A model generated the notes under the pieces. The model made no database searches. It was given only the letters and a program-made list of their open reading frames with translations, and was not told where the DNA came from. Shown piece by piece: positions 9,190 to 14,606 of a DNA stretch of 32,000 nucleotides. The position numbers and the translations under genes were made by a program. The first letter of the stretch is position 1. Each line of letters begins with the position of its first letter. Source of the stretch: Candidatus Thorarchaeota archaeon (lineage in GTDB: Archaea; Asgardarchaeota; Thorarchaeia; Thorarchaeales; Thorarchaeaceae); NCBI GenBank assembly GCA_003345555.1, contig PRDJ01000042.1, positions 1-32,000 on the forward strand, read 5' to 3'.

Positions 9190-11622
9190 TCATGTTCTCT
9201 TTCTGAGGAATACAAAGACAACCAAGACTGCAAGAATCGCTCCGGCCCCTGCAATTCCAAGAATCAATGGCCATGAGTCAGCTGGCGTGGTGGATGTAAT
9301 CGCATTACTTACGATGTGGTAGGTTCCCCCATTGATTACGAAGGAATTCCCGAGCACGTCGTTCAGCAGGATTTGGAAGGTCACATTGACACCCGGCGAA
9401 TACGGACCGAGCGTTATGCCGTATCCCTCACCATCGTAGGCAAGGTTTGCTGTATGCGCCGTGCCGTTGTTATAGCTGATCTTGGCGCTAGCGATCATTA
9501 GGTTGTCTCTAGAACGAACCAACAGCTTGATGGCAAGAGCTGATCCTTCGGTGCTGTTGATAGCCTGTACTGTCATGCTTGAGATAATGCCGCCCATTTG
9601 GATGACCACAGGGTTCGGCTTTTCTGTTGTGTTGAAATCATGGAGGTTCAACATCACTTTGGTGTATCCGAAAGAGGAAGCAGTACCCGTCAGATCAGTA
9701 ACATGTGTTGAATTCGGACCTGCTATGACTTCGGTTGATGGATCGTCAAATGCGAGGGCGGTGTTTACAAAGGGGGTCGCATTCAGCTCCACACCATAAC
9801 CGAGCCTATTCTCAAGCTTAATTGAAAGTGCAACGCTGCTGCTAGGAGTCATGACACCCAAGTTAGGCGCTGTTGTGTTGAGGTCGAGCCCTGTTACCGA
9901 CGGCAATAGAGCATCGTGTGTTGCTTCGAGTGCAGCTGACGGGTTCCACCAGTCCATCGCCGACTCTGCTTTCTGCAGATACATCCTTGAAAGCCCGAGT
10001 TTCAAGCCTCCGCTTTCAAGCGACTCGATTTGGTTTCGAGTGTCGGTGATTGCGGTTTCCGCTTGGTCCCAAATGTCAAGGAATCTGTCGACCCAGACTC
10101 CTTGTCCGAATATCATGTTGTTACGTAGGTCGAGTACCACTATTCTCCGGTTGACTAGTGCATCAGCCACATCTGCGCCAGATACGGTGCCATTCGGTCC
10201 AGTTGGATTCTGGACGAACACGACGTCTCTGATATATCCCACTCCATTCGCAGAATGGCTATCTGAAGCTCCATAGAAAGACCTGAAATAACAGTACTCC
10301 CCGGATGCCTGGAAGTATCCATCATTGGTGACCTCGAAGGCGTCATATCCGTACGTATCGAATGCTAGCCACACGGGTATGTACGCGGAGTCCATCGTGG
10401 GATGTGACAGTCCTGCGATTCCTCCTTGCGCATGAATCGCATTGACTCCCGTCTGCTGGTCAGTTGTGTAGATGTCTTCGGTTAGAGGAAAGCCTATCGT
10501 GTGCAAGATGCTGGATAGTTCCGCACCGATAATAATCGGGCAATCCAATTCATATGTCTGAGCATAACTTCTGGCTGCAAGAGCGCCGAGTGTGCCCTCG
10601 TAGCCTACGACCATGTGGCTATGATCGGTCAGAACAAAATAGTCGAGGCTGGTGCGCAGGGCAGCCACAGTCATGGCGTCTGGAGTGTCTCCGCCATCGC
10701 TGTAAGTAGTATGTTCGTGAATTGCCCCGTTGAATAGAGTGTAATTGCTCAGCTCCGAGCTATTCATGGAAGGTCCTGAGCCGATTCTGAATATGGCTAT
10801 CTCAGGTGGCTCTACGATTCTGTGTGGGTTGCCCACTAGCCAATCGATCATATTCAGAGTGAGCTGGAAATGATCATTCGGGTTCAGCTGCCAACCGCCA
10901 TCGTGGCGATATTGGACGACTGGTGCAGGAGAGCCTACGGCGACCACCTTTCCGCTGCCGGACTGCGCCACTGCCAAAGCGCTCGCACCGTTTATGATGC
11001 CTATAGTAGTTGCGGGGCTAGTCACAGTGAGAGAGCAACCCCAGACTTCATCACATTTGGAGTGAAATGACTGGACATCCTCTGTCACCGGGTGGTCTAG
11101 GATTTGACCGCTACTACGGTATGCTCTTCCCACCACCCTGTTTAGGTTGAAGGTGATGTTGTAGGCTTGGGAGACCGGGTTTAGATTCGCGGGCGTATAC
11201 TTCCAGCCGGAGGTTGTGTATTCAATACCCACTAGGAGGAGTCCGCCGCCGCTGTCCACGAAATTGTGAACTGCGGTCACTTCACCTTCCGTTAGAGCTA
11301 TCATTGGGAAGACCAAGCAAAGAACTTGATAATTGAGCAGAATGCCGCTATCGAGCGAGTAATCCCAGTTCGTAGTCACATTGTATCCATACTCTGCTAG
11401 AATCCAACCGAACATGGATGCATTGCCCGGAGTCCACATATCAGAGCCGCGGTCAATGTGAGACTCATCACAGAGCACTTTCGCACTCGCGAAGTCGACA
11501 GCGACTTGGTTTGCTGCCTGCGGTGCCCCACATGATGAGGGAATACCCAATGGCGTAACCGGCCAAAGACTCAGCGATGATACCAGAAACAAAACGACGA
11601 TAGGGACTCCGATTTTGATCAT
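9190..11622 (-). CDS. Secreted, C-terminally anchored PHP-family metallohydrolase (CehA/McbA-like) with an N-terminal GATase-like (DUF4350/GIFT-type) domain
   Basis: Hydrophobic signal (IGVPIVVLFLVSSLSL). VLCDESH...FP...LTEGEV.AVHNFVDSGGGLLLVG. PHP motifs IHEHTTYSDG, LTDHSH, GAE, LSHP, FEVTN, GASDSHS. C-terminal TM WPLILGIAGAGAILAVLVVFVFLRKR. Confidence 0.85.
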   Translation of the reverse strand: MIKIGVPIVVLFLVSSLSLWPVTPLGIPSSCGAPQAANQVAVDFASAKVLCDESHIDRGSDMWTPGNASMFGWILAEYGYNVTTNWDYSLDSGILLNYQVLCLVFPMIALTEGEVTAVHNFVDSGGGLLLVGIEYTTSGWKYTPANLNPVSQAYNITFNLNRVVGRAYRSSGQILDHPVTEDVQSFHSKCDEVWGCSLTVTSPATTIGIINGASALAVAQSGSGKVVAVGSPAPVVQYRHDGGWQLNPNDHFQLTLNMIDWLVGNPHRIVEPPEIAIFRIGSGPSMNSSELSNYTLFNGAIHEHTTYSDGGDTPDAMTVAALRTSLDYFVLTDHSHMVVGYEGTLGALAARSYAQTYELDCPIIIGAELSSILHTIGFPLTEDIYTTDQQTGVNAIHAQGGIAGLSHPTMDSAYIPVWLAFDTYGYDAFEVTNDGYFQASGEYCYFRSFYGASDSHSANGVGYIRDVVFVQNPTGPNGTVSGADVADALVNRRIVVLDLRNNMIFGQGVWVDRFLDIWDQAETAITDTRNQIESLESGGLKLGLSRMYLQKAESAMDWWNPSAALEATHDALLPSVTGLDLNTTAPNLGVMTPSSSVALSIKLENRLGYGVELNATPFVNTALAFDDPSTEVIAGPNSTHVTDLTGTASSFGYTKVMLNLHDFNTTEKPNPVVIQMGGIISSMTVQAINSTEGSALAIKLLVRSRDNLMIASAKISYNNGTAHTANLAYDGEGYGITLGPYSPGVNVTFQILLNDVLGNSFVINGGTYHIVSNAITSTTPADSWPLILGIAGAGAILAVLVVFVFLRKRT

Positions 11623-12781: not shown

Positions 12782-12859
12782 GGGCGCGTAGTCTAGCTTG
12801 GACAAGGCACCAGCCTCCGGAGTTGGATGTCGTCGGTTCGAATCCGACCGCGCCCGCCA
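12782..12859 (+). tRNA. trnR-CCG: tRNA-Arg(CCG), intronless, CCA encoded
   Basis: Cloverleaf: acceptor GGGCGCG/CGCGCCC, D arm GTCT/AGGC with G15, G18G19, A20, anticodon stem CCAGC/GTTGG with loop CT-CCG-GA, T arm GTCGG-TTCGAAT-CCGAC, discriminator G plus CCA. Confidence 0.97.
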
Positions 12860-12950
12860 TGTCTCCTTGTCGGCGAGTCACTGCTCTTTTCTCTCGGACT
12901 TTATATTGCATACAAAGGCTGACATTATCTTGAACTGAGAGGTATTGACT

Positions 12951-13160
12951 ATGAGTGCAGTTCAAGAAACCCTCAATCCTGATGAAGTGCTGGTCAGGAG
13001 ATTCACACGATATCTAAATGGGCCGATGGGCAAGGCAGTTCTGCAAGCTTTGAATGAGGGTGAAAGCTTCTTGCTGCAGACGTCTAATCATACATTCAAG
13101 GTGACCAAGAGCAGGGGTCGTGCAGTGGTAGACCTTCTCAGTTCACGCGAATTCTCATAG
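12951..13160 (+). CDS. Small hypothetical protein (69 aa) between the two tRNA-Arg genes
   Basis: GAGGT upstream of ATG 12951 and an AT-rich TTATAT element near 12901. Protein-like composition. No family recognised. Confidence 0.55.
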   Translation: MSAVQETLNPDEVLVRRFTRYLNGPMGKAVLQALNEGESFLLQTSNHTFKVTKSRGRAVVDLLSSREFS

Positions 13161-13238
13161 ATTGCAGGTAGTCATGCTAAACTCATCCACTATCTACTAC
13201 GAAGAGTCTATAAGTCAGACTCATCCCGACTGTCTTTG

Positions 13239-13346
13239 GGGCGCGTAGTCTAGCTTGGACAAGGCACCAGCCTGCGGAGTTGGATGTCGTCGGTTCTCAT
13301 GAGCCGAGTTGCAGCTCATGGCCGAGAAATCCGACCGCGCCCGCCA
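13239..13346 (+). tRNA. trnR-GCG: tRNA-Arg(GCG) with a 30-nt non-canonical intron in the T-loop, CCA encoded
   Basis: Matches the upstream tRNA except anticodon GCG. The T stems are separated by 37 nt instead of 7. Removing 13297-13326 restores GTCGG-TTCAAAT-CCGAC. Confidence 0.92.
13297..13326 (+). other. tRNA intron at position 56/57 with bulge-helix-bulge-type splice motif
   Basis: Central 4-bp helix CGGT(13291-13294)/GCCG(13321-13324), 3-nt bulges TCT (13295-13297) and AGA (13325-13327), perfect 7-bp intron helix CATGAGC/GCTCATG. Cutting after the second nt of each bulge gives exactly a canonical 7-nt T-loop. Confidence 0.88.
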
Positions 13347-13478
13347 TCTCGTCACCAATGGGACCATTGTCTTTTCGAGAAGCTTAAATGGAGCACAGCT
13401 AAAAGGTGAGAAAAGACCCCTGACAGGTCCTGTCCCATATGCGTCCGCCTTACTGACCCGCTTCTGGTGAAACATCCT

Positions 13479-14606
13479 ATGCAGTCCACATCACAGAGAA
13501 TCGAAAGGATTCATCGTACTATGCAGCGGGAAGGTGTCGACGCAATACTTGTAACGCGAAGAACTGATGTACACTACCTCACTGGCTATGAAAGCGTCTC
13601 AGAGAGTCTTCCTGTAGGATCCGTGATTGTCGAAGGCCAGCTTCCATACCTGATCATGCCCGAACTTCAACGTGAAGCCATGGGCCAAGATTCGACCATG
13701 GCAAAGTTGCGTTCTTTCGCTGACGCGCCCTCTGAACACTGGTATCCTAATCATGGGCCGGGCTTCTGGGATTGTATTGACGATATTCTGCGTGAAGCAG
13801 GGGTTCACAGGGGGATGATCGGGCTACAGCACGACTGCCTCTCAATAAGAGAATTCGAATCCCTCAAGTCTGCTTTTCCTGATGCTGGTTTCAAAGACTT
13901 CTCAAGGGCCCTATGGCGTCTCAGGCAGATTAAGGACGCGGCGGAGATTGATGCTATAAGACAAGCAGTGAAAATCGCAGAAATAGGTGTCAGGACTGCG
14001 CTTGAGACAGTAAAGGCAGGCAAGACAGAAGCTCAATGCTCGGTAGATATTGAGGCTGCGATGAGAGGCGCAGGCGGGGAGCTTAGAGGAATCAGGGCTG
14101 CTGTTTTGGCAGGCGGTCACGCACGCTTTCCGTTTGCACAGCCAACGACCGCTAGGGTTAGCAACAGTGAGCTAGTTTTGGTTGATGTCACCGTAAGCCA
14201 TTCCGGATACTTGGCCGAGGTGGCTCGAACCGTGCATGCCGGAAGTCCGTCGACAGTTCAGCGGAAGCTATTCGGCTCAGTATTGGCCACAAATGACGCT
14301 CTGCAAAGCGTGATGGCGCCGGAGACCAAGATATCCGAAGCGGCTACCCAAGCGCTCAAGATTGCTGGAAATGGGTCGCCCGTTCGCGGAGTCATACAGC
14401 CATTGGGCAGTTCAATAGGTCTTGACATAAGGGAGCCACCTTACATATACCAAGAGAGTAAGTCCACTTTCCGGGAGGGTATGGTGTTCTCGGTTCACCC
14501 CACGATATACGAACCGGAAGCAGGGTGCGCGAAGATTGCAGACGTTCTCATGATCACCGGCGAAGGCTGCGAGAGCCTGACTACGATTTCAAAGGAGACG
14601 CTTTAG
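13479..14606 (+). CDS. Xaa-Pro peptidase (M24B)/creatinase-fold protein with degenerate metal site
   Basis: Creatinase-N-like start (RIERIHRTMQREGVDAILVT..TDVHYLTGY), LRQIKDAAEIDAIRQA, and a pita-bread domain (LVDV....GY..EVART, GSSIGLDIREPP, GMVFSVHP.IY, KIAD..MIT..G.E.LT). SD GGTGA favours ATG 13479. Confidence 0.85.
   Translation: MQSTSQRIERIHRTMQREGVDAILVTRRTDVHYLTGYESVSESLPVGSVIVEGQLPYLIMPELQREAMGQDSTMAKLRSFADAPSEHWYPNHGPGFWDCIDDILREAGVHRGMIGLQHDCLSIREFESLKSAFPDAGFKDFSRALWRLRQIKDAAEIDAIRQAVKIAEIGVRTALETVKAGKTEAQCSVDIEAAMRGAGGELRGIRAAVLAGGHARFPFAQPTTARVSNSELVLVDVTVSHSGYLAEVARTVHAGSPSTVQRKLFGSVLATNDALQSVMAPETKISEAATQALKIAGNGSPVRGVIQPLGSSIGLDIREPPYIYQESKSTFREGMVFSVHPTIYEPEAGCAKIADVLMITGEGCESLTTISKETL

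Follow-up and report, generated by a model that had tools for sequence, protein, structure and literature searches.

A probable 30-nt T-loop intron in a Thorarchaeota tRNA-Arg(GCG) gene and the class of mini-introns to which it belongs

Introduction

Position 56/57, in the T-loop, is among the sites at which tRNAs of Thermoproteales carry introns. Non-canonical tRNA introns with BHB motifs have been described in Thermoproteales and other TACK archaea (Marck & Grosjean, 2003; Sugahara, 2008; Fujishima, 2010; as cited in PMC4090602 and PMC4033280), and the T-loop introns of ARMAN-2, located at 53/54 and 59/60, were cut in vitro by a broad-specificity EndA of the epsilon2 type (PMC3239211). In the enzyme of Aeropyrum pernix, broad substrate specificity is conferred by K44 of the specificity loop, or CSL (PMC3241643). 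Relaxed motifs and their tie to (alpha-beta)2 and epsilon2 enzymes are likewise on record (PMC3239211, PMC3241643, PMC5829648).

Asgard archaea, including a Thorarchaeota MAG, have an (alpha-beta)2 EndA with an L1 loop, according to the study by Kaneta et al. (PMC5829648). In three Asgard reports (PMC5829648, PMC11291895, preprint 10.64898/2026.10.13.758758), non-canonical or multiple tRNA introns are numerous, their location in the T arm is common, their gains appear repeated and lineage-specific, and many of them have been missed by annotators. The initial annotation of the DNA described here had placed T-arm introns mainly in Thermoproteales and DPANN/ARMAN archaea, a view that is too narrow given that the same reports already describe them in Asgard. 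For its focal lineages, the preprint describes almost no intron families that cross isotypes, and no copying route.

The window analyzed here is a 32,000-nt stretch of a Thorarchaeota (Asgard) contig, and coordinates without a contig prefix are positions in it. The assembly of the genome, labeled G000, totals 2.28 Mb in 82 contigs, with a completeness of 93%.

The tRNA-Arg(GCG) gene and its spliced product

Positions 13239-13346 (+) very probably represent a functional tRNA-Arg(GCG) gene that harbors a protein-spliced archaeal intron of 30 nt at T-loop position 56/57 (Table 1). Its 5' exon comprises the acceptor 5' strand, the D arm, the anticodon arm, a variable loop of 5 nt, the T-stem 5' strand and T54-Psi55-C56. 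The acceptor stem reads GGGCGCG/CGCGCCC, and the T-stem strands, GTCGG and CCGAC, surround a loop in which 30 extra bases are preceded by TTC and followed by AAAT. Deletion of these 30 bases left perfect exons and yielded, with ARAGORN, a 78-nt tRNA-Arg(gcg) of regular cloverleaf with the T-loop TTCAAAT, while shifting the excision by one base to either side gave products of 76 or 80 nt with abnormal T-loops. The location of the insert is as the initial annotation had it, and so is the presence of an intronless near-twin next to the gene; the twin is a tRNA-Arg(CCG). The spliced tRNA differs from this twin at two positions, 34 and 57, the latter being A in the spliced tRNA and G in the twin.

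Upstream of the gene, a block of sequence GAAGA(G/A)TCTATAAGTCA is kept at the orthologs in two congeneric genomes, in support of the putative TATA-like box. The spacer between the tandem tRNA-Arg genes contains an ORF of 71 aa (12945-13160, +) without a Pfam match, which occupies the same place in two congeneric genomes and shows 87% amino acid identity in one Thorarchaeota MAG. Of the flanking genes, the one at 13467-14606 (+) codes for an M24 metallopeptidase of the Xaa-Pro aminopeptidase type with a Creatinase_N domain, and the one at 9190-11622 (-) for a protein of 810 aa with weak PHP and GIFT-like matches alone.

Table 1. Features of the tRNA-Arg(GCG) locus, with positions in the window.
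Feature	Positions	Strand	Basis
Putative archaeal TATA-like box tctataag, centered ~28 nt upstream of the tRNA 5' end	13207..13214	+	inferred from sequence
Intronless near-twin tRNA-Arg(CCG), tandem partner	12782..12859	+	ARAGORN; Rfam 57.7 bits
5' exon of tRNA-Arg(GCG), acceptor through T54-Psi55-C56	13239..13296	+	sequence; ARAGORN cloverleaf after in-silico splicing
Anticodon GCG	13274-13276	+	sequence; loop CUGCGGA
Predicted 30-nt intron at 56/57	13297..13326	+	sole excision that leaves a tRNA of 78 nt whose T-loop, TTCAAAT, has 7 nt and includes C56
3' exon: A57-U60, T-stem 3' strand, acceptor 3' strand, discriminator G, CCA	13327..13346	+	sequence; ARAGORN
Encoded CCA	13344-13346	+	sequence
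Central helix H, 5' strand CGGT (tRNA positions 51-54)	13291..13294	+	pairs with 13321-13324; covariation; MFE fold
Central helix H, 3' strand GCCG (intron)	13321..13324	+	sequence; covariation; MFE fold
5' bulge UC↓U, predicted cut after 13296	13295..13297	+	BHB geometry; unpaired in MFE fold
3' bulge AG↓A, predicted cut after 13326; no closing exon helix	13325..13327	+	sequence
Intron hairpin h', 7-bp stem 13298-13304/13314-13320 with 9-nt loop	13298..13320	+	sequence; family covariation

Splice motif and precursor folds

Each helix and bulge that had been proposed for the splice motif (CGGT/GCCG, TCT, AGA and CATGAGC/GCTCATG) was found in place. The arrangement is that of a relaxed HBh' motif, with a central helix H of 4 bp, two 3-nt bulges on opposite strands and a hairpin h' stacked on H, and the predicted cuts, each behind the second bulge base, restore the canonical tRNA. 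On both strands H is followed on its 3' side by the bulge, and no other geometry fits a two-fold symmetric BHB. On the exon side, T13290-A13328 is the sole pair that can form, in agreement with the earlier proposal of a weak helix there; because of this single pair and of the unclosed 3' bulge, the motif is classified as relaxed HBh' rather than strict hBHBh'.

Since H takes up positions 51-54, a fully formed T stem is incompatible with a precursor competent for cleavage. When the 108-nt precursor was folded in full, its MFE structure retained the acceptor stem and included H, the 5' bulge of 3 nt and the intron hairpin. In contrast, both the MFE and the centroid folds of the isolated T arm show a competing structure, in which the T stem is intact and is extended by pairing of UUCUC, formed by positions 54-56 and the two bases that open the intron, with GAGAA, formed by the three that end it and positions 57-58, so that both cut sites, within 13294-13329, are buried in a helix. 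Because the local fold did not give the BHB, weight was placed on the full-length fold and on covariation. The extended-T-stem fold may compete with the BHB fold in this genome, the only one in which the UUCUC/GAGAA pairing is possible; it is not conserved, the first intron base being G in the congeneric genome G025. Local folds of three related T-arm introns display the order H, bulge, h', and one of the three, the Arg intron of another congener, G034, retains only three of the four H pairs, with a C-A mismatch in the central helix.

A family-wide class of 30-nt T-loop introns

Related introns were sought among 81 genomes of the family with a pattern made solely of the T-loop flanks and a GGCC tail, the reversed pattern serving as control. 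The search, which answers the suggestion that the intron be looked for in other tRNA genes and in relatives, retrieved 32 sites of the same architecture in 23 of the 81 genomes, and none with the reversed pattern. Twenty-nine of them are 30-nt introns at 56/57 that align without gaps. After excision, their hosts represent ten isoacceptors, namely Arg(GCG), Arg(CCG), Arg(CCT), Pro(CGG), Phe(GAA), Val(TAC), Ala(GGC), Lys(CTT), Leu(CAA) and Tyr(GTA).

The 29 introns conform to the proposed BHB structure in 95.6% of the alignment cells, compared with 70.8% after shuffling, a level that none of 500 shuffles reached. The covariation score was 0.696, as opposed to 0.193 in shuffled alignments, and sliding of the 3' partners lowered pairing to 25-43%. 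Since the search pattern itself dictated three of the four H pairs, these carry no weight in covariation, and a single H pair provides an independent test. This unconstrained pair, 51:(intron end minus 2), is CG in 9, UA in 7, GC in 4, GU in 4 and unpaired in 4 of the 28 distinct introns. Its covariation directly supports the strand swap that had been postulated, in which the 5' strand of the T stem would be recruited into the central helix. Among the same 28 introns, eight of the nine hairpin pairs have changed on both sides, and 95.2% of the cells are paired. On the exon side, the first outer pair is present in 4 of the 29 introns and the next two in none; as a helix is almost never possible there, HBh' is a property of the whole class.

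The members of the class are 30 nt long, interrupt 56/57, have C as second base, a hairpin of 7-9 bp and a 3' tail GGCC-N-A-R. The intron of tRNA-Arg(GCG) has all these traits and is a member of this stereotyped class, whose T-loop mini-introns occur in many isoacceptors of the family; its stem, CATGAGC/GCTCATG, is the majority consensus. In the alignment of introns from ten isoacceptors, five bases of the hairpin apex between positions 9 and 17 (T9, A11, T13, C15 and A17) are conserved in 24-26 of the 29 introns. The BHB motif does not need this conserved apex.

Splicing enzymes and proposed route

The genome contains exactly two EndA homologs, both with the Pfam EndA N- and C-terminal domains. 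The first, EndA alpha (188 aa, contig C57), matches the A. pernix catalytic subunit 3p1z_B (E 1e-45) and retains the Tyr/His/Lys (Y-H-K) catalytic triad. Its loop RKPKSAEF aligns without gaps with EKPRGADF of 3p1z_B, placing Lys43 and Lys45 opposite K44 and R46. The second, EndA beta (232 aa, contig C63), has Thr at the position of the catalytic His in an alignment to 1a79, and is therefore assigned as a structural subunit. The combination of a catalytic and a His-less subunit indicates, at the level of sequence, an (alpha-beta)2 enzyme. An Asgard genome with such an intron had been expected to hold a broad-specificity EndA, and a Y-H-K alpha subunit with a CSL-type Lys together with a His-less paralog is what was found. 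Relaxed-motif introns are matched, in an Asgard lineage, with a predicted (alpha-beta)2 endonuclease that bears a specificity loop. An RtcB ligase is encoded as well.

From these elements, we infer the following route for transcription, folding of the precursor in vivo, cleavage and ligation. The gene would be transcribed from its own TATA-like promoter. In the precursor, CGGU (51-54) of the T arm would leave its T-stem partners to pair with GCCG near the 3' end of the intron, and the 7-bp intron hairpin would stack on the resulting 4-bp helix. UC↓U and AG↓A would then be presented on opposite strands, with the exon helix open, as a relaxed HBh' motif. The heteromeric (alpha-beta)2 endonuclease, with its crenarchaeal-type specificity loop, would cut each bulge behind its second base, RtcB would join the exons, and the T stem would re-form around the loop UUCAAAU. 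In the one wetland metatranscriptome run that contained part of the region (20% of sampled words), the only contig, of 259 nt, covers 12846-13105, that is, the spacer and the small ORF, and stops short of the tRNA.

Visibility to tRNA finders

In its unspliced form the gene was called neither by ARAGORN nor by the Rfam model RF00005, both of which reported the CCG twin alone at this place, and it had no match to RF00005 in a whole-genome search, even at E<=10. The concern that standard annotation could overlook it was therefore justified for both tools. Archaea require a tRNA-Arg with a GCG anticodon to read CGU and CGC codons. No second Arg(GCG) gene, an intact copy of which would have spoken against the intron-containing one, emerged in the 93%-complete genome from ARAGORN, from Rfam at E<=10 or from an excision scan of the genome, in which each of 292,003 BHB-like candidates was excised and ARAGORN rerun on the products. 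One candidate for a second Arg(gcg), at C77:7075-7178 (+), was rejected, as brute-force excision turned it into a tRNA-His(GTG) with a 5'-proximal intron. This hidden tRNA-His gene has an intron of ~29-31 nt directly after the acceptor 5' strand; it was missed by ARAGORN and scored just 22.7 bits with Rfam.

The excision scan also brought to light further hidden genes of the same genome with non-canonical introns, among them Tyr(GTA) and Ala(GGC), whose introns of 30 nt occupy this T-loop site too, as well as Lys(TTT), Ser(TGA), Gly(CCC) and Glu(CTC). The sole decoder of CGU/CGC arginine codons found in the genome escapes ARAGORN and the Rfam tRNA model, and MAGs of this kind will appear deficient in tRNAs unless intron-aware finders are used.

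Gain and spread

Two congeneric genomes share the intron. In the MAG G025, intron and gene are present at 97% identity over the full length, and the tRNA-Arg(GCG) of G034 is interrupted at the same site. The tandem pair, CCG followed by GCG, is conserved across the family, and among the fetched loci the GCG gene lacks an intron in 20 genomes from five genera. With a class-wide pattern that ran from the anticodon loop to the T-loop, Arg(GCG) was uninterrupted at 56/57 in ~50 genomes of 11 genera and interrupted only in the genus of G000, G025 and G034. Because the site is uninterrupted in so many genomes of 11 other genera, a lineage-specific gain within the genus is likely. Gain on the genus branch is the simplest reading, tied with a single loss only if the genus is sister to all the rest. 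The earlier suggestion that the locus is a snapshot of intron gain or loss can accordingly be narrowed to a probable genus-specific gain, for which orthologs in sister genera and the adjacent twin, all of them lacking the intron, are available for comparison.

Within each genome the tandem Arg genes are near-identical, but they differ from one genome to the next, a pattern that speaks for gene conversion between the two. In G034 (L007:980-1600), the tandem CCG and GCG genes each have two introns, of 34 nt in the D-loop and of 30 nt in the T-loop. Relocation of this D-loop intron was considered as a source of the Arg(GCG) intron; the two share the stem CATGAGC/GCTCATG (20/24), yet this stem is also the class majority consensus, and the candidate was set aside. 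Orthologous or related genes bear other inserts as well. In G023, a genome of another genus, tRNA-Arg(GCG) at L026:2417-2523 has a different insert, of 29 nt, in the T-stem 3' strand, with a junction that is ambiguous between 60/61 and 63/64; it represents an independent intron in the orthologous gene. The tRNA-Pro(CGG) of G000 (C26:31311-31418) has an intron at 37/38 and none in the T-loop. This 37/38 intron shares ~22 of 30 bases, including a CTGA..CCAG apex, with the Pro T-loop introns of G010 (L036:1509-1560) and G034.

Whether the members of the class are related by descent was approached through their similarity. The Arg intron of G000 is no closer to the Tyr or Ala introns of the same genome than random members of the class are to each other, which already have a mean of 17.4 of 30 positions in common. 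Across isotypes, hairpin similarity amounts to 11.3 of 23, vs. 7.5 in a structure-preserving shuffle, a value attained in 0 of 1000 shuffles. The Arg and Pro(CGG) introns of G034 match at 26 of 30 positions (87%; P ~0.0015 per pair under the class profile), a likeness that hints at recent copying and is suggestive only, because of the multiple comparisons. A tentative and rather doubtful proposal is that the 30-nt T-loop mini-introns of Thorarchaeota form one homologous family that is still spreading, rather than a set of independent look-alikes. Under that proposal, a copy may have entered tRNA-Arg(GCG) after the genus had split from the ~11 uninterrupted genera, in a congener it may then have moved to the tandem tRNA-Arg(CCG) by gene conversion, and the conserved pentaloop A-Y-U-N-C could be the sign of a function, or an element by which the spreading intron is recognized. 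If true, the class would serve, within an Asgard lineage, as a system in which the arrival of archaeal tRNA introns can be dated and studied by comparison.

Alternative explanations

The locus might be thought to be a tRNA pseudogene, in which an unrelated 30-nt insertion has struck a duplicate of the neighboring tRNA-Arg so that the transcript never matures. Such a gene would be passed over by standard finders, as this one is; a near-identical intact paralog lies 380 nt upstream, and the tRNA is absent from the metatranscriptome contig obtained in the region. The paralog, however, has another anticodon (CCG), and no other GCG decoder was found. Furthermore, the insert is placed precisely so that BHB cuts bring back a T-loop of 7 nt, three congeneric genomes retain it with changes that preserve pairing, the exons have not decayed, and the architecture recurs in ten isoacceptors with strong covariation. 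With neither decayed exons, nor loss in the congeners, nor a redundant copy found in the 93%-complete genome, a pseudogene is very improbable. A chimeric join inside repeated tRNA sequence, at the assembly or binning stage, is more improbable still, to the point of being negligible. The first ~30 nt are identical in both tandem Arg genes and short-read unitigs do break there (12811 and 13268), but three DNA runs of two wetland studies gave contigs (3709, 5417 and 671 nt) that span 13244-13500 with zero differences. The possibility that no reads would span the insert has thus been addressed, since these contigs cross the intron unchanged, and an independent MAG contains the same gene at 97% identity.

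It might also be that the intron is real and that its cut sites or fold differ from HBh', the substrate being a T-stem-extended hairpin or the enzyme another nuclease. The local folds of the T arm, which favor an intact T stem with the UUCUC/GAGAA extension, and the lack of an exon helix to close the 3' bulge are what such a view would predict. Against this, the extension is not conserved in G025, alternative excision frames yield tRNAs of aberrant length and T-loop, the pairs of both H and h' show class-wide covariation, and (alpha-beta)2 enzymes are known to cut HBh' substrates (PMC5829648, PMC3239211). A different fold or set of cut sites consequently appears quite improbable, and the HBh' intron at 56/57 remains the preferred reading. 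So read, the locus provides a clean T-loop intron with comparative support, whose recognition motif would need the precursor to open its T stem.

Comparison with known systems

The closest solved relative of the catalytic subunit belongs to the (alpha-beta)2 EndA of A. pernix (PDB 3P1Z; PMC3241643), with which the triad and the basic residues of the CSL align. The two differ in that R46 is replaced by Lys and that the predicted beta subunit is longer, at 232 aa, with an acidic N-terminal extension. As in ARMAN-2 (PMC3239211), where the BHB motifs are strict or relaxed, introns lie within the T-loop; in contrast to ARMAN-2, the genome has alpha plus beta EndA subunits instead of epsilon2, and both the intron positions and the lineage are others.

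The likeness to Thermoproteales and other TACK archaea (PMC4090602, PMC4033280) extends to short introns outside 37/38, including in the T arm, to relaxed HBh' and hBH motifs, to an (alpha-beta)2 EndA with a specificity loop, and to similar introns across isoacceptors. Unlike in those archaea, the host is Asgard and the class is stereotyped, being always of 30 nt and at 56/57, with a conserved pentaloop. Within Asgard, the published accounts center on Atabey-, Freyr- and Jordiarchaeia, and the locus described here is not named in their available excerpts. Because both the introns and the EndA type of Asgard have been published, the intron of tRNA-Arg(GCG) is a well-supported example and not a new kind; it adds detail to that picture and leaves the picture unchanged. 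Where the Thorarchaeota family departs from the focal lineages of the preprint is in having one intron architecture common to ten isoacceptors.
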